Shown here piece after piece: positions 6,918-58,112 of a DNA stretch of 64,000 bases. Position 1 is the first letter of the stretch. Each line of letters begins with the position of its first letter. The translations under genes and the position numbers were made by a program. The notes under the pieces were generated by a model, which made no database searches, was not told the DNA's origin, and saw only the letters and a list, made by a program, of their open reading frames with translations. This DNA comes from a virus. The stretch lies in UHGV virus genome UHGV-1962423. One strand, 5' to 3'.

Positions 6918-6958
6918 TTCAGATATATATTACTTAGGTGAGAGAATTACGTAATACT
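6918..6958 (+). promoter_or_regulatory. conserved promoter-like box TTCAGATATATATTACTTAGGTGAGA plus palindromic hairpin
   Basis: One of five near-identical AT-rich boxes in the window; hairpin core attacgtaat at 6946-6955; about 45 nt upstream of ATG 6991. Confidence 0.6.
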
Positions 6959-33795: not shown

Positions 33796-33835
33796 TCAGA
33801 TATATATTACCTTAGTGAGATTACACAGTAATCTC
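33795..33835 (+). promoter_or_regulatory. conserved promoter-like box CTCAGATATATATTACCTTAGTGAGA plus hairpin
   Basis: Same box as at 6918, 53683 and 58071; hairpin gagattac-acag-gtaatctc; about 50 nt upstream of ATG 33870. Confidence 0.6.
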
Positions 33836-43596: not shown

Positions 43597-44030
43597 AAGT
43601 AAAAGCAGCAGTAGAAGTTATTCCCAAAAAAGAAATCGTAGTGTGTTCCGGTTTAGTATTCGAGCTGCCGCGCACTGAATGTTATAATAGCACCAATCCT
43701 GAAACGATAATTAGACGCCTTTCAAGACATTGCCTAAACTACTGTCAAGTTGTTACACCGACAAAGGATGGCGATATAGTCCAAGAACATTTGATTATTA
43801 ATGAACTCGTGGGCGGTGTCCTTAACGGAATGGAGCTTGAAGAAGTGAATGGTTCGTTAAAGCTTTATGCCAACTTTCGTCCATGTGGACCACTGGGCAA
43901 TAAAGTAAATGAATTTATTCAGTCACACGGGTATGTAAAGCTTAAACCACGTTTACACTATATCGATTCTAAAGTAGCTATGATTTCAGCTATCGATATT
44001 GACCTATCAAAACCTTCTGAAAATCACTAA
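43593..44030 (+). CDS. hypothetical protein (145 aa)
   Basis: ATG 43593 with GGAGA RBS and ATGA overlap; track start 43575 is an upstream in-frame ATG. Confidence 0.65.
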   Translation: MKVKAAVEVIPKKEIVVCSGLVFELPRTECYNSTNPETIIRRLSRHCLNYCQVVTPTKDGDIVQEHLIINELVGGVLNGMELEEVNGSLKLYANFRPCGPLGNKVNEFIQSHGYVKLKPRLHYIDSKVAMISAIDIDLSKPSENH

Positions 44031-44060
44031 CCGTCCTTGATTTTCAGCTACAGATTAGTT

Positions 44061-44108
44061 TCCTACCGCCCGATTCTATGGGCGGTAGGTGTTTTATTTT
44101 TTTTTTTG
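44061..44108 (+). terminator. rho-independent terminator
   Basis: cctaccgccc-gattctat-gggcggtagg followed by tgttttatttttttttttt. Confidence 0.8.
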
Positions 44109-44123
44109 ATCTTGGAGGGTTAA

Positions 44124-44687
44124 GTGGCCACATCTTACGTACCTGATTTGAGTCTGACCTCAGCAGAGCTAGTGGTCGCTTTAATCAATCATGATAACGG
44201 GTTACAGCTTACGCTAAACGAAATCCGTATTAGCGGAACCGTAACAAACCCATCACCAACAACTTCGCGTCGTAACACCATCACCGAAATCAGTAAAATC
44301 AGAAAACCGGATGGTGCGTCTGTTGTGGTCTACTACGACAGACTTGACGCCGATGAGGTATTAACGTCTGAACCTATTTTGATTTCGTTAGACGGTACCG
44401 AAGCGAATATCCGTGACGTTCTGAGTGTTGTAAATGAACACTGCGGTACGAACTTACAGCCTGAAGACTTACGCGTTTCTGATATTACTTCAGGTAACGA
44501 TCCTATTGCCGTTAACGTTGCCGACGATTCACCTGCGTGGATGAATGCGTTTATGGTGACGTTATTTGATAAAACTGAGCGTGCGTTAGCGAACGAAGAA
44601 GATGAAATCTTCTGCATCGGTGACGATAGCGTTCTTACCTTTGAGGTTCCAGATGACGACTCAGCTGAAGAAAACCCGACTACATGA
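44124..44687 (+). CDS. small protein paired with downstream tail fibre, module A (187 aa)
   Basis: GTG start with GGAGGG RBS; clear paralog of 50418..50930 (PDLSLTS...V.L.NHD..LQL...NE, shared C-terminal CGIGDDSV.LTF); both sit directly upstream of a receptor-binding gene. Confidence 0.7.
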   Translation: MATSYVPDLSLTSAELVVALINHDNGLQLTLNEIRISGTVTNPSPTTSRRNTITEISKIRKPDGASVVVYYDRLDADEVLTSEPILISLDGTEANIRDVLSVVNEHCGTNLQPEDLRVSDITSGNDPIAVNVADDSPAWMNAFMVTLFDKTERALANEEDEIFCIGDDSVLTFEVPDDDSAEENPTT

Positions 44688-44892
44688 ACTTGATGATTTT
44701 TACCGGTAATGGAGGACAAAGCAAACTTTTATCAAGACTTAGCAAACCAAAATCATGAAAACGCGAAATTGAACATCGCTTTCACGTTAGAAGATGATGT
44801 ATTAAAACCAGGGCAATAGTAACCCGCTTATAAAAAATTGGGGGGTAAACTACTCTCCTGATCTTTTAGCTCCCGATAGAGAATTAAATATC

Positions 44893-47800
44893 ATGGCTAA
44901 AGCGGTAAAGAAAATTCGTTTACACGATTTACGTCCATACACCGGTGATATCGGTGAAGGCGTTTTACTTTTCTCCAAGGATGAGAAAGATTATAAGTTA
45001 CCAGTCCGTGAGGTTATTGCAGATATTGACACCGTACGTAATGCGGTGGCTGATGCACAAACAGCAGCAGCACAATCACAAGAAGCTGCAACTCAGGCTA
45101 CGCAAGCAAAAGTTTTAGCAGAAGCAGCAAAACAACAAACTGACACAGTTGCGGCAACGGTTGCACAACAAGCGCAAACCGTAACCGAAAAAGCAACAGA
45201 AGTCAGTACAAAACATACCGAAGTGTTAGCCGCGAAAACGGCGGTAGACGCTCAGGCTGTGTCCATTAATGAGAAAGCACAAGCGGTAGCGACAAGTGAG
45301 GCAAACGTCACACAAGCAGAAACTACCGTTACGAAGAAAGCAGAAACTGTTGCCACACAAGCCGGGCGGGTCGAACAGTCACTTACGGCAGTTAACGAAG
45401 CTGTTGCGTCGGTAGAGTCGTCGAAAGCTGCCGTAGAAGCTAAAGCAACACAAGTTACTTCAGACAAAGAAACCGCAGAGAATGCGGCAACTCGTTCTGA
45501 GGCAGCCGCTAAGCGTGCGGAAGAAATCGTTGCTCAAGGTACTGTTGATGCAACAACGACCAGTAAAGGTGTCGTTAAACTTAATAATACCTTAACCAGT
45601 GACTCTGTTACTGAAGCGGCTACACCGTCAACGGTTAAGCAGTTAAATGATGAATTGCAGTTAAAAGCAAACCGTCACAACCCAACTTTTACCGGTGTGG
45701 TAAAAGCACCGACTCCTGCTTCGGATTCTAACGACACGAGCGTCTCAACGACTGCATGGGTACGGCAAGCGATTGCTGAATTAGTGGACTCTTCACCCGA
45801 GACGTTAGATACGTTATCAGAAATTGCAGCCGCGTTAGGAAACGATCCTAACTTTGCGACAACGATAACGAACCAACTAGCGGGTAAACAGCCGTTAAGT
45901 CCGTTACTGACAGCGATTGCCGCAGTCACCACCGCTGCAAACAAACTCCCTTACTTTACCGGTAGTAATCAGGTAGGGTTAGCGGATTTCACCTCGACTG
46001 CTCGCGAATTATTAGCGAAAGGGTCGACGGCCGATATCATCAGCTTCCTGGGGTTGAAAACCACCGTTGATAAAGCTGCGGGCGCTATGCAACGTAGTTC
46101 TAACGGTGCCGATATTCCCGATAAAGCCACCTTCGCGAAGAACATCGGGTTGTCAGCAGAGACGTACCTGAAGTTTAATGGGGAGATGCCAGTAGATGCA
46201 GACATCAACACCTTCGGCCCGGTTGAAGCGTTTATGGGCGTTTGGTCTAAAGCCACGTCTACGAACGCAACAGTTGCAAAGAATTTTCCAGAAGAAAACG
46301 CAGTTGGTTGTTTAGAAGTTTTCAAAGCGGGTAACTACAGCGGAAGTCAACGTTTTACTGTACGTAACGGTAACATCTATACACGTCATCTTACTGCTGC
46401 ATGGAATGGGACAAACGGTCCTTGGTCAGAATGGCGTAATGTTGCTGGTTCCGCCAGAACGTTGAACGAACAAAATAATCTGAATGACTTGGGTGGTGAG
46501 GCCGCACTAGGTGTTTGGAGAAACAGTTCGAGTACATTAGCAACAACCGCGCTGAATTATCCTGAAGAAGGCTCTTTTGCCCAGGGCGTATTAGAAGTTC
46601 TCAAAGGTGGCAACTATAGTTACACACAACGCTACACTACCCGCAGAGGCAATGTATACGTTCGTTGTCTACAAGCCACGTGGGACGCTTCAAACCCGCA
46701 ATGGGAAGAATGGCGCTGTGTTGGTCATCAATCTGTCAGCACATATTTCGAAGGCGATCTCGACACGTTAACTTCGCCTAACCGTTATAGCATTACTGAT
46801 AAAGCGACAAACGTTCCTTTAATCGACGGTACTAAAATTATCGGTATCTTGGACGTCAGTCGTCGTTTTGATAACATTAGTGTCGAACAAAAATTCACCT
46901 CGTTTGGTTCTGGGAGCAAAACTACAGGGCGTATTTTCACACGTGTATTCTCCGGTCAATCAAACGGTAAATGGAGTGAGTGGCGAGAGGTTTTCACCTC
47001 GTATTCACTTCCGTTAGTTTTAGGTATCGGTGGGGTTGCAGCTAAGGTTGACCCGTTAGACTGGCAAACCTACGACTTCGTTCCTGGACAGATGTTAACG
47101 ACGCCGTTGAACACCATGAAAAACATTCCTGCAGGAATGGATTGGGGTACTATTGACGGTAACTTAGTTAACATCCTTGTAGGGCCGTCTGACGACACCG
47201 GTACTGGTCGGAGTATGCTGGTTTGGCGTAGCACAGTGTCTGTTGCTAACTATCGCTTCTTTGCGGTACGTATCGCTGGTGAGAAGGGTAGTCGTACGAT
47301 TACGCCGCGTCAGATGCCTGTGTTGAACGCAGCGCACACCTGGTCAGAGAAACAAACGTTCTCTAAAGGTTTAGCGGGTGAATTAACCGGTAATGCTTCT
47401 TCAGCAACGAAACTTCAAACAGCCCGTTTAATCGGCGGCGTAAGTTTCGACGGCACCAAGGACATTGCACTCCCTGGCGTTAACGCACAAGGTACGCAGA
47501 ACACCACTGGGAATGCGGCTACCGCAACCAAATTACAAACGGCTAGAAATATCAACGGTGTGAAATTCGATGGCTCTGGAGACATCAATATCAACACCTT
47601 AGTAGGTCGTGGACGTGTCACTGCTCTGGCTGGATCAAACAAAGGTACACCTGGTATCCAGATGTACGAGGTTTACAATAACGGTTATCCGACCGCGTAT
47701 GGTAATTTACTGCATTTAGGTGGTGCTACTGCCGTAGGTGAAGGTGAACTACTGATCGGTTGGTCTGGTACCAGTGGCGCACACGCACCTGTTTATATCC

Positions 47801-49209
47801 GTAGTCGTCGAGACACTACAGATGCGCCGTGGTCAGAATGGGCGCAAGTTTATACTGCACGAGACAGCATTCCGGGTGTCAACACCACAGGTAATCAGGA
47901 TACGACCGGAAACGCAGCTACCGCTACAAAACTTAAAACCACACGTAAAATAGGCGGGGTTAATTTTGACGGAACGGGTGATATTAACCTACCAGGTGTA
48001 AACCAGCAGGGCAACCAGAACACAACAGGTAACGCTGCGACAGCGACTAAACTCCAGACTGCCCGAAATATTGGTGGTGTGGCTTTCGATGGTACTAAAG
48101 ACATCAGTTTACCTGGGGTAAACCAAACAGGGAATCAGTCAACTACGGGGAACGCTGCTACTGCAACGAAGTTGCAGACAGCAAGAAGTATCAACAACGT
48201 ACCATTCGATGGTTCGAAAGATATTACTCTAACGCCAAGTAATATCGGTGCGGCTGCCTCCTCAATGACTTGGTTAAATACCGGGGATAATGGTGCAGCG
48301 CTTAGTACAGATTCTTTTATTACTTTGTTGCAAAATAACGGGGCTTTTAATTCCAGAACTTGGATAGCCCGATGCTCTTGGGCGTATGCTCAAAATGGCG
48401 TGATTCCAGATAGTGAAACAAAGTGCGGTACTATTCCACTTGCAGGCTCAGTTATTGAAGTTGTAAGTTTTGGGATGACCAACTACACCATTCGTATCAC
48501 AACCCCTACGACGACATCGGTTAGCGGAGCAAAAACCAACTCTGAGTTTATTTATTGCTATAATGGTAAAGATTATTCTCCAGGTTGGCGACGGCAGTAT
48601 AACACTGTTAATAAACCGTCTGCTAGTGACGTTGGCGCTCTACCAACTGGTGGCGGTACTGTCAGTGGCGATTTGACGGTTAATGGTAAACTGGTTACGA
48701 AAAATGCCGATTTTCGAATTGCTTACGGTAGTTACGGTTTCATTTTACGTAACGATGGCAATAGCACCTATTTCTTAGTAACAGCATCTGGTCAAGCTGC
48801 AACGGGTTCCTGGAATAACTTACGACCGATGTATTTTAGCAACTCTACCGGTCAAGTAACCTTCGGGCACAACGTTACTGGTAACGGGAACGGTTCGTTT
48901 AACGACGTACAGATTCGTTCTGACCGTCGTAACAAACGTAATCTGGTGAAACTGGATAATGCATTAGACCGTTTAGAACTCCTTACCGGGTATCTGTACG
49001 AAGTTCAACATCCTGACGATGGATGGAATACTTCGGTAGGCTTAATTGCCCAGGATGCATTAGTTGCGTTACCTGAATTGGTTACTGAAGACGATGACGC
49101 TATTTCTGGTGAAAAACGTTTACGTTTGAACTATAATGGTGTTATTGCGTTGTTGGTAGAGGGCATTAAAGACCTTCGTCGTGAGCTTAAGGAACTCAAG
49201 GGGAAATAA
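44893..49209 (+). CDS. long tail fibre protein with C-terminal intramolecular chaperone domain (1438 aa)
   Basis: N-terminal anchor shared with 50934 gene; Ala/Thr/Gln-rich coiled-coil; tandem TGNAATATKLQTAR.IGGV.FDGTKDI.LPGVN repeats like T4 gp12/gp34/gp37 fibre repeats; C-terminus SDRRNKRNLVKLDNALDRLELLTGYLYEV...GLIAQDALVALPELV matches the self-cleaving chaperone of endosialidase/L-shaped fibre proteins. Confidence 0.85.
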   Translation: MAKAVKKIRLHDLRPYTGDIGEGVLLFSKDEKDYKLPVREVIADIDTVRNAVADAQTAAAQSQEAATQATQAKVLAEAAKQQTDTVAATVAQQAQTVTEKATEVSTKHTEVLAAKTAVDAQAVSINEKAQAVATSEANVTQAETTVTKKAETVATQAGRVEQSLTAVNEAVASVESSKAAVEAKATQVTSDKETAENAATRSEAAAKRAEEIVAQGTVDATTTSKGVVKLNNTLTSDSVTEAATPSTVKQLNDELQLKANRHNPTFTGVVKAPTPASDSNDTSVSTTAWVRQAIAELVDSSPETLDTLSEIAAALGNDPNFATTITNQLAGKQPLSPLLTAIAAVTTAANKLPYFTGSNQVGLADFTSTARELLAKGSTADIISFLGLKTTVDKAAGAMQRSSNGADIPDKATFAKNIGLSAETYLKFNGEMPVDADINTFGPVEAFMGVWSKATSTNATVAKNFPEENAVGCLEVFKAGNYSGSQRFTVRNGNIYTRHLTAAWNGTNGPWSEWRNVAGSARTLNEQNNLNDLGGEAALGVWRNSSSTLATTALNYPEEGSFAQGVLEVLKGGNYSYTQRYTTRRGNVYVRCLQATWDASNPQWEEWRCVGHQSVSTYFEGDLDTLTSPNRYSITDKATNVPLIDGTKIIGILDVSRRFDNISVEQKFTSFGSGSKTTGRIFTRVFSGQSNGKWSEWREVFTSYSLPLVLGIGGVAAKVDPLDWQTYDFVPGQMLTTPLNTMKNIPAGMDWGTIDGNLVNILVGPSDDTGTGRSMLVWRSTVSVANYRFFAVRIAGEKGSRTITPRQMPVLNAAHTWSEKQTFSKGLAGELTGNASSATKLQTARLIGGVSFDGTKDIALPGVNAQGTQNTTGNAATATKLQTARNINGVKFDGSGDININTLVGRGRVTALAGSNKGTPGIQMYEVYNNGYPTAYGNLLHLGGATAVGEGELLIGWSGTSGAHAPVYIRSRRDTTDAPWSEWAQVYTARDSIPGVNTTGNQDTTGNAATATKLKTTRKIGGVNFDGTGDINLPGVNQQGNQNTTGNAATATKLQTARNIGGVAFDGTKDISLPGVNQTGNQSTTGNAATATKLQTARSINNVPFDGSKDITLTPSNIGAAASSMTWLNTGDNGAALSTDSFITLLQNNGAFNSRTWIARCSWAYAQNGVIPDSETKCGTIPLAGSVIEVVSFGMTNYTIRITTPTTTSVSGAKTNSEFIYCYNGKDYSPGWRRQYNTVNKPSASDVGALPTGGGTVSGDLTVNGKLVTKNADFRIAYGSYGFILRNDGNSTYFLVTASGQAATGSWNNLRPMYFSNSTGQVTFGHNVTGNGNGSFNDVQIRSDRRNKRNLVKLDNALDRLELLTGYLYEVQHPDDGWNTSVGLIAQDALVALPELVTEDDDAISGEKRLRLNYNGVIALLVEGIKDLRRELKELKGK
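47385..48240 (+). repeat. tandem in-frame coding repeats of the fibre motif
   Basis: At least five copies of the ~25-50 aa unit; nucleotide copies differ at synonymous positions. Confidence 0.7.
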
Positions 49210-49212
49210 AGG

Positions 49213-49755
49213 ATGGCAGTTGTTGAAGTTCCAGGTTATATCGGTTCTTCTGCAAAGGAAGTTACTGGCGAAGAGATGATGTCTGAAGCGATGACCGAAC
49301 TCGGCGTTGTCGTACCAGGGATGATGTCTGAAATGGCAGGTCTGTCAATGGGTTGCTATGTAACGTTTGAGGAGTGGACTACCGTTGAAGATGGCCTTGA
49401 TGTTCGATGGATCGGTGCGTCTACTTCCGAGTGGACAGACGGCTACGGCAAACCGGTCGTTAAAGGAAAAATATCCGGGGCGAAGATGTTTGGTTTGAAT
49501 GTCGAAGCGGAGCTGATCGGAATGCACTATAAAAAGCATCCGCGATTCCCTTGGTCAGTCGAACTAAAATGTCGCTGCGAAAAAGGTAGCAATTTCAGTT
49601 ATACGTTAGACGGTGTAAGCGGTTCTGTATCGAGTGATGGTACCGGTACAACCGGAATGCAAATTCGTACATTCAAATTTAACAATTTCAGTGCAGCATT
49701 TAAGGAAAAGATAGAGCAAGTTGGTGTCAAGATGCCAACATCACGTAAATATTAA
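49213..49755 (+). CDS. hypothetical protein downstream of tail fibre, paralog 1 (180 aa)
   Basis: MAVVEVPGYIGSSAKEVTGEEMMSE...MGC; paralogous N-terminus to 49812 gene (MAV....G..GSSAK.ETGE..MS.A...LG...P.MMS.M.G.SMGC). Confidence 0.7.
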   Translation: MAVVEVPGYIGSSAKEVTGEEMMSEAMTELGVVVPGMMSEMAGLSMGCYVTFEEWTTVEDGLDVRWIGASTSEWTDGYGKPVVKGKISGAKMFGLNVEAELIGMHYKKHPRFPWSVELKCRCEKGSNFSYTLDGVSGSVSSDGTGTTGMQIRTFKFNNFSAAFKEKIEQVGVKMPTSRKY

Positions 49756-49799
49756 AAGAGTAGCGTAGGGGTGACCTCCCCCCTACGCGAATCTTAACA

Positions 49800-49809
49800 G
49801 GGGGGGGGG
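49800..49809. repeat. G10 homopolymer tract immediately upstream of start codon 49812
   Basis: Ten consecutive G directly read in sequence, 2 nt before the ATG; preceded by hairpin gcgtagggg...cccctacgc at 49763-49788. Confidence 0.9.
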
Positions 49810-49811
49810 TA

Positions 49812-50315
49812 ATGGCGGTTAACTCGGGTTGGGTCGGTTCTTCGGCTAAGAGCGAAACGGGCGAACAGTGGATGAGCGCTGCGGGTGCCAAATTGGGATT
49901 GGGTAAACCTTTTATGATGAGTCAAATGGTGGGACGATCTATGGGCTGTAAAATTTCAACTGCTGCATATAGTGATTCTTTAGGTAAGAAATGGGGTGCT
50001 GTGGGATCAAGTTGGCCATTAACTCAGAAAAATCAGGGAACCATTCAAAACGCGGGTAACTGCGGGGTGGGAACTTTAGTAGGTATAGAGTTACAATTAA
50101 CGACGGTAGTTGCCAACGCAACGCCTACTCTAGCGGTCTATTTACAAGGCGGCAGGGCCTCTAACATCACTGCAAATCTAGGCGGTAACACTTGTGCGCT
50201 GACCTATCAGCAGGTTATTAATGGCCAACATTATTACTGGACCAATAACATTAGTGCCGCGTTCCAAAACGTGATGAAATCGACCGGTACACTAAGAGAT
50301 TTCAAAATTAGTTAA
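49812..50315 (+). CDS. hypothetical protein downstream of tail fibre, paralog 2 (167 aa)
   Basis: Paralog of 49213 gene; start codon directly after the G10 tract. Confidence 0.65.
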   Translation: MAVNSGWVGSSAKSETGEQWMSAAGAKLGLGKPFMMSQMVGRSMGCKISTAAYSDSLGKKWGAVGSSWPLTQKNQGTIQNAGNCGVGTLVGIELQLTTVVANATPTLAVYLQGGRASNITANLGGNTCALTYQQVINGQHYYWTNNISAAFQNVMKSTGTLRDFKIS

Positions 50316-50352
50316 TTATTTTTCAAACGAATGTGTTTGAAAACGTAATCGA

Positions 50353-50362
50353 GGGGGGGGGG
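50353..50362. repeat. second G10 homopolymer tract in intergenic region
   Basis: Ten consecutive G, 55 nt upstream of GTG 50418. Confidence 0.9.
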
Positions 50363-50417
50363 TGAAGTGTTTTTAGCCAACATTTTATGTCTCCCCAACC
50401 GTAGGAGGTAAATATAC

Positions 50418-50930
50418 GTGGAACAATTCACGCCAGATTTGTCGTTAACTTCACTTAACATGGTTATTTCACTGGTTAACCATGACCTCCAACTTGACTT
50501 GCAAGAGAATGAGGTCGAAGTCAGTGACGTAAAGACCAGTGACGAAATGGAACGTGACACCACTGCTGTTGTAAAGATAAAACGTTCTGGTAACAGAACG
50601 TTACAAATCTACTACAACCGTTTAACTGCAGAGCGGTGGTTAAACCGACAACCTGTACTTGTAAAAGTAACAGGCGAAGGGTTTAATGCGCACGATCTAA
50701 TCGAATCCATCAACACCGTTTGTGGTGCTAACTTACAAACCGACGATTTAACCGACCAGTCGTTCACGGTGGGTAAAGACGCGGTAATATTTAGCATCGC
50801 TCCGAGTTCCCTCGGCTACAAAGGTCAGTTCTCCGTGGTGGTTTTCGGTCCAGATGAAACACCGTGTGGTATCGGTGACGATTCTGTCGTGCTAACGTTT
50901 GACAATAAAATCTTAACCTTTGGAGAGTAA
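50418..50930 (+). CDS. small protein paired with downstream receptor-binding protein, module B (170 aa)
   Basis: GTG start with AGGAGG RBS; paralog of 44124..44687. Confidence 0.7.
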   Translation: MEQFTPDLSLTSLNMVISLVNHDLQLDLQENEVEVSDVKTSDEMERDTTAVVKIKRSGNRTLQIYYNRLTAERWLNRQPVLVKVTGEGFNAHDLIESINTVCGANLQTDDLTDQSFTVGKDAVIFSIAPSSLGYKGQFSVVVFGPDETPCGIGDDSVVLTFDNKILTFGE

Positions 50931-50933
50931 TAG

Positions 50934-53066
50934 ATGAGTCAGCCAATTGGAAAGAAGCGTATTCATGAGCTGGAAACATTTGAAGGTGAATTAGCAGGAG
51001 TCGTTCTGCTGATGTCCAAAGACGACAAAGAATATAAACTTGACGCATCTCGTTTACAAAACGATAAGCTGTATCTAGCTTGCGGTACACCTTTTCCTAA
51101 ACTAGTATTCCAAAACGATAAAACACTTTACAATATTAATCCGTACAGTGACTACGACACTTATGAAGTTTCTGCAAATAAAGGTCGGGTATCTAAAGTT
51201 ACTCGTGCCACATTTAGCGTGATGGCTGGGTCTTTATCGGTTGGCGAGAAAATACAACTTACAGTTACGCGCAATGGCGTACCATTTCAATTTGAAGTTA
51301 CCGTATCGGGACCGCGTATCACTACTCCCACTTGGACACTTCCAGTTAATGGCGGTAAATTGAGCGTAACGCCAACCTTTGAAGTAACTGACTATCAAGC
51401 CTATCCATATACCAACACCGGTAATCAACAGACCGCTGCCAGTTGGGAAATTTCCACTAGTGAAGATTTCTCAACTACAGTTTTCCAATCACTGAACGAC
51501 ACCGTCAACAAAACAACCATCAGTATCCCAGAAGGTAAGTTAGAACCAGGTCAAACTTACTACGCACGTGTTCGCTTCCATAACGCAGTAACCGAAAGTG
51601 ATTGGTCCGTTGTTCAATTCTCAGTCGGCGAAGCATTTATTCAGCGTCCTGCACTGATCGAACCCACCGTAGACATGGTGTTAAGCGCATCGAATATTAC
51701 ACTTAAAACTGATGTTTTTAAATGGGTCGGTGACGAACCTGCGGAGACCCACGTATCGACTGACTGGCAGGTTACTTACGGTAGCAACGATTTTGACGAA
51801 ATGAATAATCTCGTTAACCAATTAGAAGATGCGATTAACCTGACGTCGCTTAAATTACCGTCTGATCGGGTTTACGTTAATAACAGTTATCGTGCACGCG
51901 TGCGTTTTCGTGGTGAGAGAAGCGTCAGTGATTGGTCTGAACCTTTAACGTTCCGTGTAAGTCGCGGGAACGTACCAACAAGTGAATTCCAGTCAATTTC
52001 TGCTTCTGGATTTACAGGTAATTCAATCGGTGCTGAGTTGGCATGTACTGACGACGGTTTGCTGTTTGCTGCTACTGGCGTTGCACAGAAAGCGAAATTC
52101 TTACATATCTTTAAGAAAGACTTCCCGTCTTACAACAAAGTTGCCTCTTTAACAGCTGCTACTGAGGTTGACGCAGACAGAGATGGTCGCTGTCCGGTCA
52201 GTATGTCAGCCGACGGTAAGATTATTGTTGTCGGTGTTAGCGCATCTAAAGCTAACGAAGACCACGGCGAAGTTATCGTTTACCGTAACCCAGATAACGC
52301 TGAGTGGAGTACAATCAACGGAATAACTTTAGCGGGATTACCCACAGAAGGGTTCCATGGCCTTGCAGTAAAACTGTCAAAAGACGGCAATCGTTTGATT
52401 GTGGGTAACGGTACGAAAGTGCTGTCTATGTATTCCAATACCGATCAATTTGCTACACGTACGGCTGTGTCGCCGACACTAAGTGCCGAAGACGCCACTT
52501 GTGGTGGTATTGGTAGCATTGCAATGTCTGAAGACGGTAACGGTTTAGTGCTTGGCGAAACTAACGGAACGAAATTCCACGTACTGGCTTGGGAATCGGA
52601 TAGTTGGGTGACTAAGGCATCTATTACACCAAAAGACTTGACTGAGAAAGCAACGATTAAAGTCGCTGCTTCTTCTGACTTGTCTACGATTCTTGTTTCT
52701 GTAGTTGAGACACACAAATACTACGTTTACAAGAAAACCGGTGATAGTTGGTCTCTGTTCCAAACCTTGGATTATACCGAACTGGATTACTCCATTACTT
52801 CTACCCGTTACCCGACGGGAGACATTAATGTTGCGCCTTCCGGAAGCTGGTTAATTTTCGGTATGGTGGGTTCGTTGGGTTCTATTTTCGAATTTCGTAA
52901 TAGTACCTACCAACGACAAAATAGCATTTACGGCAGTAGTCTTAGCGATCCTGAGAATTACCACTTCTATACGTCACAAGCCATCAGTGCACAAAACGAT
53001 TTGTTCGTCGGTGCTGATGTTAAAGAAAGTGCTTCGTACTTCCCACAAATCAAAGTTTACATGTAA
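50934..53066 (+). CDS. second receptor-binding protein (tail fibre/spike) with shared N-terminal anchor (710 aa)
   Basis: N-terminus KKRIHELETFEGELAGVVLLMSKDDKEYKL parallels KKIRLHDLRPYTGDIGEGVLLFSKDEKDYKL of the 1438-aa fibre; central Ig/FN3-like stretches; C-terminal repeated ..DG..IVVG.. units suggestive of a beta-propeller (inference). Confidence 0.6.
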   Translation: MSQPIGKKRIHELETFEGELAGVVLLMSKDDKEYKLDASRLQNDKLYLACGTPFPKLVFQNDKTLYNINPYSDYDTYEVSANKGRVSKVTRATFSVMAGSLSVGEKIQLTVTRNGVPFQFEVTVSGPRITTPTWTLPVNGGKLSVTPTFEVTDYQAYPYTNTGNQQTAASWEISTSEDFSTTVFQSLNDTVNKTTISIPEGKLEPGQTYYARVRFHNAVTESDWSVVQFSVGEAFIQRPALIEPTVDMVLSASNITLKTDVFKWVGDEPAETHVSTDWQVTYGSNDFDEMNNLVNQLEDAINLTSLKLPSDRVYVNNSYRARVRFRGERSVSDWSEPLTFRVSRGNVPTSEFQSISASGFTGNSIGAELACTDDGLLFAATGVAQKAKFLHIFKKDFPSYNKVASLTAATEVDADRDGRCPVSMSADGKIIVVGVSASKANEDHGEVIVYRNPDNAEWSTINGITLAGLPTEGFHGLAVKLSKDGNRLIVGNGTKVLSMYSNTDQFATRTAVSPTLSAEDATCGGIGSIAMSEDGNGLVLGETNGTKFHVLAWESDSWVTKASITPKDLTEKATIKVAASSDLSTILVSVVETHKYYVYKKTGDSWSLFQTLDYTELDYSITSTRYPTGDINVAPSGSWLIFGMVGSLGSIFEFRNSTYQRQNSIYGSSLSDPENYHFYTSQAISAQNDLFVGADVKESASYFPQIKVYM

Positions 53067-53075
53067 GGAAACGCG

Positions 53076-53636
53076 ATGAAATATGCTTATTTAAAAGACG
53101 GTAATGTGATCGACTGGAATGTTACCGAAGACATGATTGCTTTGCGTGGCCACACTGTAGATATTTATACGCCTGTAGTAGAATCTGCTAAACCGGTTGT
53201 TAACCCTGATTGTTATATCGTGTTCGAAACAACACCAAAACTGGTAAAAGGCAAGCTGGTTCAACAGTGGGTGACTGAAGTGCTGCCTAAAGAAACGGTA
53301 GTACGTAACCAGAAGGCACGTTTAGCGGAAATTCGTTATGCGAAAGAAACTGCCGGGATTACGTTTAAAGACCAAACTATTCCTACGACACGTGATGTAC
53401 GTTATCAGTTAATTCAGTCTAAACACGTTGATTCTACGCAACCTATTAACTGGAAGCTAGGCGATACGTGGCTAAGTCTTACTCAGGAAGACATTGATGC
53501 GCTGCTGGTTGCAATCGCAACTTATGTTGAGAAATGCTACGCGGCAGAACGCACAGTCTCCGAGAAAATCACTAAGGTGAAAGCACCTGAAAAACTGGAT
53601 GTAGAAACCTTATTTAACGACGCTTTCGCAGCGTAA
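53076..53636 (+). CDS. hypothetical protein, possible fibre assembly or accessory factor (186 aa)
   Basis: Immediately downstream of the second receptor-binding gene; role inferred from position only. Confidence 0.6.
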   Translation: MKYAYLKDGNVIDWNVTEDMIALRGHTVDIYTPVVESAKPVVNPDCYIVFETTPKLVKGKLVQQWVTEVLPKETVVRNQKARLAEIRYAKETAGITFKDQTIPTTRDVRYQLIQSKHVDSTQPINWKLGDTWLSLTQEDIDALLVAIATYVEKCYAAERTVSEKITKVKAPEKLDVETLFNDAFAA

Positions 53637-53640
53637 CACG

Positions 53641-53683
53641 GTAGCAGGGGCTAAGCCCCTGCTACCTTTTTCTTTATTTTTTC
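53641..53683 (+). terminator. rho-independent terminator
   Basis: gtagcagggg-ctaa-gcccctgctac followed by ctttttctttatttttt. Confidence 0.8.
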
Positions 53684-53728
53684 TCAGATATATATTACCT
53701 AGAGGAGAGTGAAATTTACATTCACTCC
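53683..53728 (+). promoter_or_regulatory. conserved promoter-like box CTCAGATATATATTACCTAGAGGAGAG plus hairpin
   Basis: Box plus hairpin gagtgaa-atttaca-ttcactc; about 30 nt upstream of ATG 53757. Confidence 0.6.
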
Positions 53729-53756
53729 ATTAGTTATAGCCGAAAAGGAGGATTAG

Positions 53757-54608
53757 ATGTATCACCCGTATTATCTCCCGCACATTCTAGCAAATAGAGA
53801 CCCTGGTTATTACTACGAACAAACAAAAGGATCTTTTAATCGGCTCTACATTCGCGAATTTAATACTGATGAAATGACCGATGACCAGTATCTGGAGTAT
53901 CTAAAAGACCTCTACGGTTTTTCAAAATCGAATAAAGGTGGCTTTGGACGTTCCGCAGTTATTAGAGTTGGTGAATATCGTCATTTGGCTAAGCCCGTTA
54001 CGTATCCTATTGTTACACGCGCTTATACATCGGATAGGCAATATATTGCTGAACTAAAATTTCCTTTACGGATAGACGGGCCACAAATTAGCGCTATAGA
54101 AGTAGAAATTCAACCAATTGCTGAAGACTATATTGAAGTCTACTTCAAGAAAGCTAAAGAGGTACTCGAGGAGGGTTTAAGCTACTATGAAGAAGGAACG
54201 ATTTGTCTTCTTTCGTTACTCACGAAGGCTTATGTCACAGCAAATTTCCGTATCTCCGACTCCAGTGACTATAACACATTTACCCCCTCTAAGGCAAAAC
54301 CTGTTTATTGGGACGATCAGTTAGTCGACAGACAACGCTGGCTTACTATCTTAGATAAAGTAAAATTCGAACCCCCTAAACACACTGAAGACAACTTTAT
54401 TCTATCCCACAACTTCGAACCGATCTATATTCCGACGCATTTTGAGCAAGCCTTACGTCATCGATTGAAGTATGTGTTGGAATTACGGTACGGGAAGATA
54501 AATGGGCTAACTTGTTCTGGTGAATTGAGTGAAGAAGAACGCGAGAAGATAAAAATCGTGTTTGATAAGTTGGTTGAAGATTACATTAAGAAGGAAGGAC
54601 AGTTATGA
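53757..54608 (+). CDS. hypothetical protein (283 aa)
   Basis: AAAGGAGG RBS; first gene after promoter box. Confidence 0.8.
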   Translation: MYHPYYLPHILANRDPGYYYEQTKGSFNRLYIREFNTDEMTDDQYLEYLKDLYGFSKSNKGGFGRSAVIRVGEYRHLAKPVTYPIVTRAYTSDRQYIAELKFPLRIDGPQISAIEVEIQPIAEDYIEVYFKKAKEVLEEGLSYYEEGTICLLSLLTKAYVTANFRISDSSDYNTFTPSKAKPVYWDDQLVDRQRWLTILDKVKFEPPKHTEDNFILSHNFEPIYIPTHFEQALRHRLKYVLELRYGKINGLTCSGELSEEEREKIKIVFDKLVEDYIKKEGQL

Positions 54609-56767: not shown

Positions 56768-56810
56768 TTAGCACTCCCTCGGTTTTCCCGAGGGAGATAA
56801 GGTGTTTTGC

Positions 56811-58070: not shown

Positions 58071-58112
58071 TTCAGATATATATTACCTAGGTGAGAGTTC
58101 AGTTACTCTCAC
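58071..58112 (+). promoter_or_regulatory. conserved promoter-like box TTCAGATATATATTACCTAGGTGAGAG plus hairpin
   Basis: Hairpin gtgagagt-tcagtt-actctcac; about 30 nt upstream of ATG 58143. Confidence 0.6.

Follow-up and report, generated by a model that had tools for sequence, protein, structure and literature searches.

Length-variable G tracts in the receptor-binding locus of an uncultured SPN3US-related jumbo phage

Two uninterrupted runs of ten G residues (G10) lie in the tail-fibre locus of the virus genome UHGV-1962423, in the 64,000-nt stretch of DNA analysed here (the window, to which all positions refer). The locus raises the question of what such runs do beside duplicated fibre-associated genes, for which the original prediction had offered phase-variable expression by slipped-strand mispairing, a recombination hotspot for cassette exchange, a structured RNA element or a sequencing artefact.

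Both G10 tracts are present where they were first described. One (site 2) spans 49800-49809 and ends 2 nt from the ATG at 49812; the other (site 3) spans 50353-50362, between the stop of the 49812 gene (50315) and the GTG that opens the following gene (50418). A shorter G6 (site 1) lies upstream at 44840-44845, 2 nt from the position originally given (44838-44843). These three are the only G runs of at least 6 in the 64-kb window, in keeping with the earlier impression that long G runs are unusual there, and all fall within the fibre/adhesin locus. C runs of at least 6 number four in the 64 kb, one of which (49778-49783) is inside the hairpin that precedes the first G10. G runs of at least 10 are expected 0.03 times per 64 kb from independent bases and 0.01 times from a first-order Markov model, compared to the 2 observed, and two G10 runs arose in 0 of 200 simulations. 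In a closed 222-kb relative, G/C runs of at least 6 are depleted approximately 12-fold (4 observed, ~51 expected), with a G9 and a C9 remaining. The tracts are real and far from chance. Homopolymers gain or lose residues by slipped-strand mispairing during replication, and both window G10 tracts exceed the uninterrupted length needed for slippage (at least about 7 nt). The homologous locus of the cultured relatives SPN3US and Asesino is free of long G runs; thus, the feature is specific to the lineage of the window.

The source phage and its fibre locus

The ENA metagenome contig OBXH01000029.1 (200,848 bp) contains a stretch identical to the window. The major head protein that it encodes (761 aa) shares 78-80% identity with its counterparts in Erwinia phage phiEaH2 and Salmonella phage SPN3US, and the collection searched holds no phage record that matches at the DNA level. 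By this combination of head-protein kinship and no DNA-level match, the source is assigned to an uncultured SPN3US-related jumbo phage of Enterobacteriaceae with a genome of ~200-225 kb. Gut metagenomes contain relatives of 220-226 kb, as do assemblies of Salmonella, Shigella and Enterobacter isolates; one such relative, NZ_CP134650.1 (Enterobacter ludwigii 51A:C; L189-L194), is closed and filed as a circular plasmid. The presence of this ~222-226 kb lineage (proteins P0002, P0014, P0022, P0026 and P0031) in assemblies of isolates, in one case as a closed circular 'plasmid', is suggestive of pseudolysogeny or a carrier state in cultures. A scan across metagenomes with an 18-nt pattern lacked specificity: of the 120 loci returned, 119 are chance matches and the last is the window's own source contig.

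The fibre locus is enclosed by two strong intrinsic terminators, the upstream one at 44062-44089 (a 12/11-bp stem, then T11 at 44097-44107) and the closing one at 53640-53666, and all of its genes are on the + strand. Module A opens with a small virion protein of the DUF7941 family (44124-44687; Pfam PF25613, 71.5 bits; PHROG 2935). A 205-nt spacer that contains the G6 separates this gene from that of the long fibre; the G6 follows CTTATAAAAAATT in the leader of the fibre gene and forms the 5' arm of a weak hairpin with CTCC (44840-44858). Within the spacer, a conserved 36-codon ORF (MEDKANFYQDLANQNHENAKLNIAFTLEDDVLKPGQ; 44710-44819) lies between the DUF7941 gene and the G6; in some relatives (L196 and L167) it is annotated as a gene of 36 to 43 aa. 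The long tail fibre (1438 aa; 44893-49209) has Phage_fiber_2 and Gp34_trimer domains and a gp37-like C-terminus with a Peptidase_S74 chaperone domain.

Two gp38-type adhesins follow, A (180 aa; 49213-49755; PHROG 1121) and B (167 aa; 49812-50315; PHROG 1121, E = 1e-45). Both have a Gp38_N domain (PF21721; 43 bits for A and 73.6 bits for B, cut-off 25), and their overall identity is 30%; the duplicated fibre-associated genes noted earlier on either side of the first G10 are, thus, paralogous gp38-type adhesins. The N-terminus of adhesin B matches the fibre-attachment region of PDB 6F45_D at residues 1-61 or 1-62 (E = 3e-4). Neither adhesin A nor adhesin B has a detected C-terminal polyglycine-rich GP38 domain (PF05268); some relatives have, in place of adhesin A, a 260-aa protein that carries it. 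Between the two adhesin genes, a hairpin at 49763-49788 (GCGTAGGGG-TGACCT-CCCCTACGC, with an arm also written CCCC(CC)TACGC) lacks a T run, as had been pointed out, and is followed by site 2, the only purine-rich element upstream of adhesin B. An AT-rich hairpin (TTCAAAC-GAATGT-GTTTGAA; 50322-50341) lies 3' of adhesin B.

Site 3 belongs to the leader of module B and stands 55 nt before it. Its G run forms the 5' arm of a predicted 17-bp hairpin (50354-50396), in which it pairs with CUCCCC (50391-50396), with an inner stem of GUGAAGUGUU/AACAUUUUAU. In the absence of the G run, CUCC is predicted to pair with the Shine-Dalgarno (SD) sequence GGAGG of the next gene (50404-50408) and so to sequester it. 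This gene encodes the second DUF7941 small virion protein (50418-50930; PF25613, 51.4 bits), which is 33% identical to that of module A. A 710-aa receptor-binding or tail protein with a weak Ig_Rha78A_N match (50934-53066) and a tail-fibre associated DUF4376 protein (53076-53636; Pfam PF14301, 47.7 bits) complete the locus; in relatives, a SASA/DUF6645 protein occupies the position of the 710-aa protein.

An early-promoter-like sequence, GATATATATTACCT (context TTTCTCAGATATATATTACCTAG), is found just after terminators at 33799-33812, 53687-53700 (beyond the closing terminator of the fibre locus) and 58075-58088, and with one mismatch at 6922-6935, giving four matches where 0.02 are expected. 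It is the only DNA-level stretch common to the window and the Erwinia/Salmonella jumbo phages, and it resembles the AT-rich early-promoter type described for jumbo phages that encode RNA polymerases.

Variation in tract length among relatives

Comparison of homologous loci in related phages, called for in the original prediction, finds the tracts conserved in position and variable in length: homologous positions in contigs of IMG/VR, ENA, NCBI and Logan have G tracts of 5 to 12 residues, and homologous tracts of 8 to 12 residues are found in ~50 related contigs. L196 and L197 differ from the window by no substitution in 13,504 nt, and the sole difference is a G9 in place of the G10 at site 3. 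In L195 and L198, from run ERR526064 and with 99.75% identity to the window, site 2 has 9 residues and site 3 has 10. One study contributes six contigs, each from a separate run (L203-L208), that show no substitution over 4.6-13 kb and differ only at site 3, which is G10 or G11; an in-gene G10 about 1 kb from site 3 is G10 in all six. This constancy of an in-gene tract while site 3 varies argues against random homopolymer noise. Among 13 contigs with identical flanks, site 3 has 8 residues in one, 9 in four, 10 in five and 11 in three, and the range across relatives is 8-12. The interrupted or short tracts GGGGTGGGGG and GGAGGGGG are invariant (in 6/6 and 2/2 contigs, respectively). Tracts of the site 3 type, thus, show both length polymorphism among otherwise identical genomes and loss of that polymorphism on interruption.

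The other two sites also vary. Homologues of site 2 are G7 or G6A in the P0004 group and G5 in L035. Those of site 1 are G10 in L002, L004 and L173, GGGCGGGGGG in L167, GGGGGAGG/CCTCCCCC in L003 and GAGGGG/CTTCCTC in L169 and L179; these variants retain a hairpin of a G arm and a C arm with different sequences. Instability extends to other bases: the T run of the upstream terminator, T11 in the window (44097-44107), is T9 in the near-identical L195; therefore, instability is a general property of long homopolymers in these genomes and not special to G.

The hairpin that precedes site 2 also differs among relatives. Its interior is inverted, reading GGGG-TGACCT-CCCCCC in the window and G10-AGGTCA-CCCCCC in L195 (6452-6473) and L198 (1-21); the hairpin before site 2 in the P0004 group is G4-AGGTCA-C9 to C11. 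The inverted interior could stem from the assembly or from an inversion by template switching at a quasi-palindrome.

Long tracts in relatives are inside or adjoin receptor-binding genes, where length has a readable consequence. The SASA/DUF6645 receptor-binding gene carries an in-ORF tract that is G10 in 11 contigs (708 aa, intact) and G7 in two (707 aa, intact), and the gene is split where the tract is G9 (two contigs; 45 + 663 aa) or G11 (one contig; 61 + 663 aa). Lengths are in frame in 13 of the 16, and this preponderance of open frames suggests that selection acts on the tracts. The adhesin B orthologue often begins with ATG and a G run, which is in frame at G5 (13 contigs), G8 and G11; with G4 (two contigs) it reads ATG GGG TAG. 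In NZ_CP134650.1, a C9 on the + strand (the G9 tract of a minus-strand gene) splits a Cys/Gly/Ser-rich gene into ORFs of 69 and 170 aa. This gene is the last of a tandem set of minus-strand Cys/Gly/Ser-rich genes with CSGSCSGGC-type repeats, 130-131 aa in length (L194 12849-14341, NZ_CP134650.1 212849-214341), a set that is absent from the gene table of the record.

Contigs start or stop at the tracts in several cases, including L183 (position 1, G12), L198 (position 1, G9), L188 (position 6) and L170 (end, G9). Relatives' contigs so often begin or end exactly at a G tract that short-read assemblies tend to break there. The exact tract length in any one assembly is therefore uncertain, and differences between assemblies could in part be homopolymer miscalls; a disagreement by one G between assemblies of one strain is also a hint of switching within a clonal population. 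The variation itself is observed, and slippage is ascribed as its cause because this is the established behaviour of homopolymers. The comparison of relatives shows hypermutability, and the tracts are very probably slippage-prone, length-unstable elements of the contingency type that are tied to receptor-binding modules. As to the phase-variation option, length instability between identical relatives that differ only there and ORF switching by the in-gene tracts of relatives both hold; a frame switch does not hold for the window's own tracts, which are non-coding.

Predicted effects of the leader tracts and competing explanations

The G10 tracts of the window are both intergenic. The frame of adhesin B has no in-frame start upstream of 49812 and is closed by TAG at 49761-49763. 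The non-coding position means that a frameshift ON/OFF switch does not apply and that any effect would be graded. An N-terminal extension of adhesin B through the tract was considered and set aside, as the window has no in-frame start and the TAG at 49761 intervenes; an in-frame upstream ATG for adhesin B occurs only in relatives of the P0004 group, where a 175-aa gene is called.

At site 2, the G run plus UA is calculated to form a duplex with the anti-SD of -11.7 kcal/mol, a value surpassed by just one of 60 genes (median -6.4); no other SD was found in the sequence upstream of adhesin B. The usual SD spacing is 5-9 nt. Since the tract ends 2 nt from the AUG, only longer tracts would place a G5 core at this distance. 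Folding predicts that with 8 residues or fewer the upstream hairpin forms and the tract is about half free, while with 9 or more the C run pairs with the tract; the two states are separated by an energy gap of less than 1 kcal/mol. At site 3, the SD of the DUF7941 gene is predicted to be unpaired in 12% of cases without the tract and in 57% with at least 6 G residues. The predicted accessibility is flat from 6 to 12 residues; thus, the observed variation between 8 and 12 may have no effect at this site.

As to the suggestion of structured RNA, hairpins with a G-run arm are predicted and conserved in sequence, and the site 3 hairpin has 88% of cells paired compared to 55-60% in slid controls. 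A covariation test of this hairpin found no double-sided compensatory change, so that the structure is without covariation support. The stem of the AT-rich hairpin differs on both arms in relatives (CAAGCG..GTGCTTG, CAAGTC..GTGCTTG and CAACTG..CGGTTG). Rfam gives no relevant match at E <= 1 in 43900-54000. On the + strand, neither the hairpin at 49763-49788 nor that at 50354-50396 is followed by a T run, and the genuine terminators of the phage look different; the weak hairpin of site 1 is the only tract hairpin that is followed by TCTTTT. A G-quadruplex is not feasible, as a lone G10 cannot supply four separated G runs. A 14-codon upstream ORF that starts just past site 3 and ends on the next SD is not conserved, with a TAG at codon 3 in L172 and L179 and a different frame in L199.

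From these elements a mechanism is proposed in which the G10 tracts and the shorter G6 would be hypermutable simple-sequence contingency tracts in leaders at the junctions of receptor-binding modules. Slipped-strand mispairing at replication would add or remove G residues. In relatives, the length of an in-ORF tract would decide which frame is open, as their sequences indicate. In the window, the site 2 tract would serve as the ribosome-binding element of adhesin B, its length setting both the distance of anti-SD pairing from the AUG and capture by the upstream C run, and the site 3 tract would pair with the CUCCCC that otherwise occludes the SD of module B. Progeny would consequently vary in the dosage of module B and in the balance between the two alternative gp38-type adhesins. 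The regulatory steps derive from folding and duplex calculations; as the tracts are non-coding, control would be translational and graded rather than ON/OFF. The full model, in which contingency tracts tune the expression of receptor-binding proteins, is judged slightly better than an even proposition. Its most specific form is doubtful: the leader tracts may act as a heritable, reversible rheostat (of adhesin B at site 2 and of module B at site 3) that sets the ratio of adhesins competing for one fibre tip, such that a burst carries mixed receptor specificities, with the G-run elements serving also as portable junctions for cassette exchange.

The most searching challenge to a tuning role is that the tracts are neutral, slippage having expanded an SD-like G5 and the G-rich arms of hairpins, in intergenic DNA under little constraint, to lengths that drift at ~8-12 residues with no effect on expression; the clustering would then reflect merely the long, recombining intergenic spacers of the fibre locus. 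Shorter or interrupted versions at the same positions (G5, G6, GGGGTGGGGG, GGGCGGGGGG and GGGGGAGG) look like seeds or decay products of such a process, site 3 shows every length from 8 to 11 with no periodicity, predicted SD accessibility does not respond to length in the range of 6 to 12, and T runs vary too. Drift is harder to reconcile with the strong avoidance of G/C runs of at least 6 elsewhere, when many diverged lineages have tracts of ~10 G at these same junctions, and with the tracts in the receptor-binding ORFs of relatives, of which 13 of 16 are at in-frame lengths. Neutrality is, on balance, unlikely, if worth taking seriously. An artefact of sequencing or assembly, e.g., two-colour-chemistry poly-G or a chimeric join, would account for contigs that break at tracts and for assemblies of the same strain that disagree by one G. 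This is scarcely credible, and as an explanation for the existence of the tracts the artefact option is rejected: homologous tracts occupy the same positions in ~50 contigs, from independent studies and assemblers and including one closed record; the flanks are collinear and the tracts internal to a 200-kb contig; and the equally long in-gene G10 is invariant in the six contigs where site 3 varies.

Two further readings give the tracts a role other than tuning. AATC-G(n) elements may mainly provide microhomology at module boundaries for adhesin and fibre cassette swaps between co-infecting phages. The boundaries of homology are suggestive, as L002 shares exactly 49804-50356 of the window, from one G run to the other; with L004, L035 and NZ_CP134650.1, homology starts at 50353-50355, at the first G of site 3; with L171, it starts at 49800; and adhesin B sits between the two G10 tracts with modules on either side that are mosaic among relatives. 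The recombination hotspot proposed earlier is, thus, upheld as a correlation, in that the homology blocks of several relatives begin or end at tracts, and not as a cause. Gene cassettes must end in intergenic DNA, so that overlap with an intergenic element is partly expected; ten G residues are short for homologous recombination; and no relative among those compared has adhesin B precisely deleted between the tracts, an excision between the two G10 repeats that was looked for in the relatives examined. A linker role as the main function is improbable, although it is compatible with the contingency explanation rather than exclusive of it. The tracts might instead be transcription signals, in which an A/T-rich segment and a G run mark a start or processing site of the phage's own RNA polymerase and transcripts open with a protective 5' hairpin. 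An A/T-rich motif (TATAAAAAATT, GTAATCGA or GAATCTTAACA) does precede each tract, and each tract begins a predicted hairpin. The late promoters of phiKZ consist merely of a TATG motif that overlaps a G start (PMC7598289), and a phage promoter this minimal could pass unnoticed in the sequence. The flanking motif is nevertheless not TATG and differs among the three sites, no sigma-70-like promoter is found on the + strand at the tracts (which also disposes of the tract as a sigma-70 promoter spacer), and the locus, being within strong terminators, could be a single operon. Transcription signals are, thus, a very improbable explanation.

Parallels in other phages and bacteria

The closest known system is the polyG phase variation of Fletchervirus, followed by the contingency loci of T2/T4. 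Campylobacter phages of the genus Fletchervirus are described as carrying hypermutable polyG tracts in receptor-binding genes (Sorensen et al. 2021, Cell Rep 35:109214, as cited in PMC12633550). Going by that account, the two systems share G tracts of ~7-11 residues concentrated in the receptor-binding genes of a virulent myovirus, and a length that switches frame, as seen here in the relatives of the window (SASA/DUF6645 gene and adhesin start). By contrast to Fletchervirus as so described, the present phage is an SPN3US-related jumbo phage of ~225 kb from a clade with Enterobacteriaceae hosts. Its window tracts are in leaders (at the SD position or as a 5' hairpin arm) and cannot act by frameshift, tracts within ORFs being found only in its relatives.

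In T2/T4 and other phages, homopolymers of at least 6 vary by polymerase slippage in populations, some of them intergenic, and bet-hedging is proposed (Gomez, Barrick & Waters 2025, bioRxiv 10.1101/2025.10.21.683753; PMC12633550). In the tail-fibre proteins of BASEL coliphages such repeats are under-represented, at about 0.77x (PMC12633550). Unlike in those coliphages, the long G tracts here are all in the receptor-binding locus, and G/C runs are avoided in the rest of the genome. Control by non-coding homopolymers is known from bacteria, as in the poly-G of the 5' untranslated region of Moraxella catarrhalis uspA1 and the promoter-spacer tracts of Neisseria porA and opc. The window tracts are like these in that a G or C tract outside an ORF may grade expression by its length. 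In the bacterial examples, which belong to cellular genomes, the tract affects transcript level or the spacing of the promoter, whereas the target proposed here would be translation initiation or leader folding.

The PeSL (promoter-early stem-loop) cassettes of T4-type phages, reportedly described by Arbiol et al. in 2010, offer a possible parallel in architecture, as short conserved regulatory hairpins flank variable ORFs and coincide with points of module exchange. In the window, adhesin B is flanked by stem-loops, at which homology breakpoints also fall. Unlike PeSL, no promoter is detected beside the tracts, and the G-run/C-run hairpins are in a late structural locus instead of early hyperplastic regions. 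The fibre itself resembles the T2/S16 type (PDB 6F45), with a C-terminal S74 chaperone domain followed by small Gp38_N proteins, and differs from it in having two tandem adhesin paralogues with unrelated C-terminal parts, neither with a Pfam GP38 domain.

Experimental demonstrations of bet-hedging by hypermutable G tracts in phages come mainly from Campylobacter phages, and a 2025 preprint proposes a wider occurrence. The lineage described here would add to these a widespread uncultured phage of ~225 kb (Salmonella, Shigella, Enterobacter and the human gut), adhesins of the gp38 type, and tracts in non-coding leaders, where control would be graded rather than ON/OFF. Were the rheostat to prove true, it would represent non-coding contingency control of host range in a jumbo phage of the nucleus-forming type. 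Host-range prediction and annotation of such phages hinge on tract lengths that assemblies report inconsistently.

Similar tracts occur 3' of the fibre locus in relatives. There, a hairpin (CCCCTCTCAGGAAnTCCTGAGA) is followed by G10 in L169 (12425-12434), G9 in L170 (12425-12433) and G6 in L180 (12750-12755), and members of the P0017 group (L179, L181 and L183) have a C7, C9 or C11 run after TAACTA, near alignment column 13160. At the place that corresponds to these downstream variable tracts, the window has a different hairpin (56768-56797).
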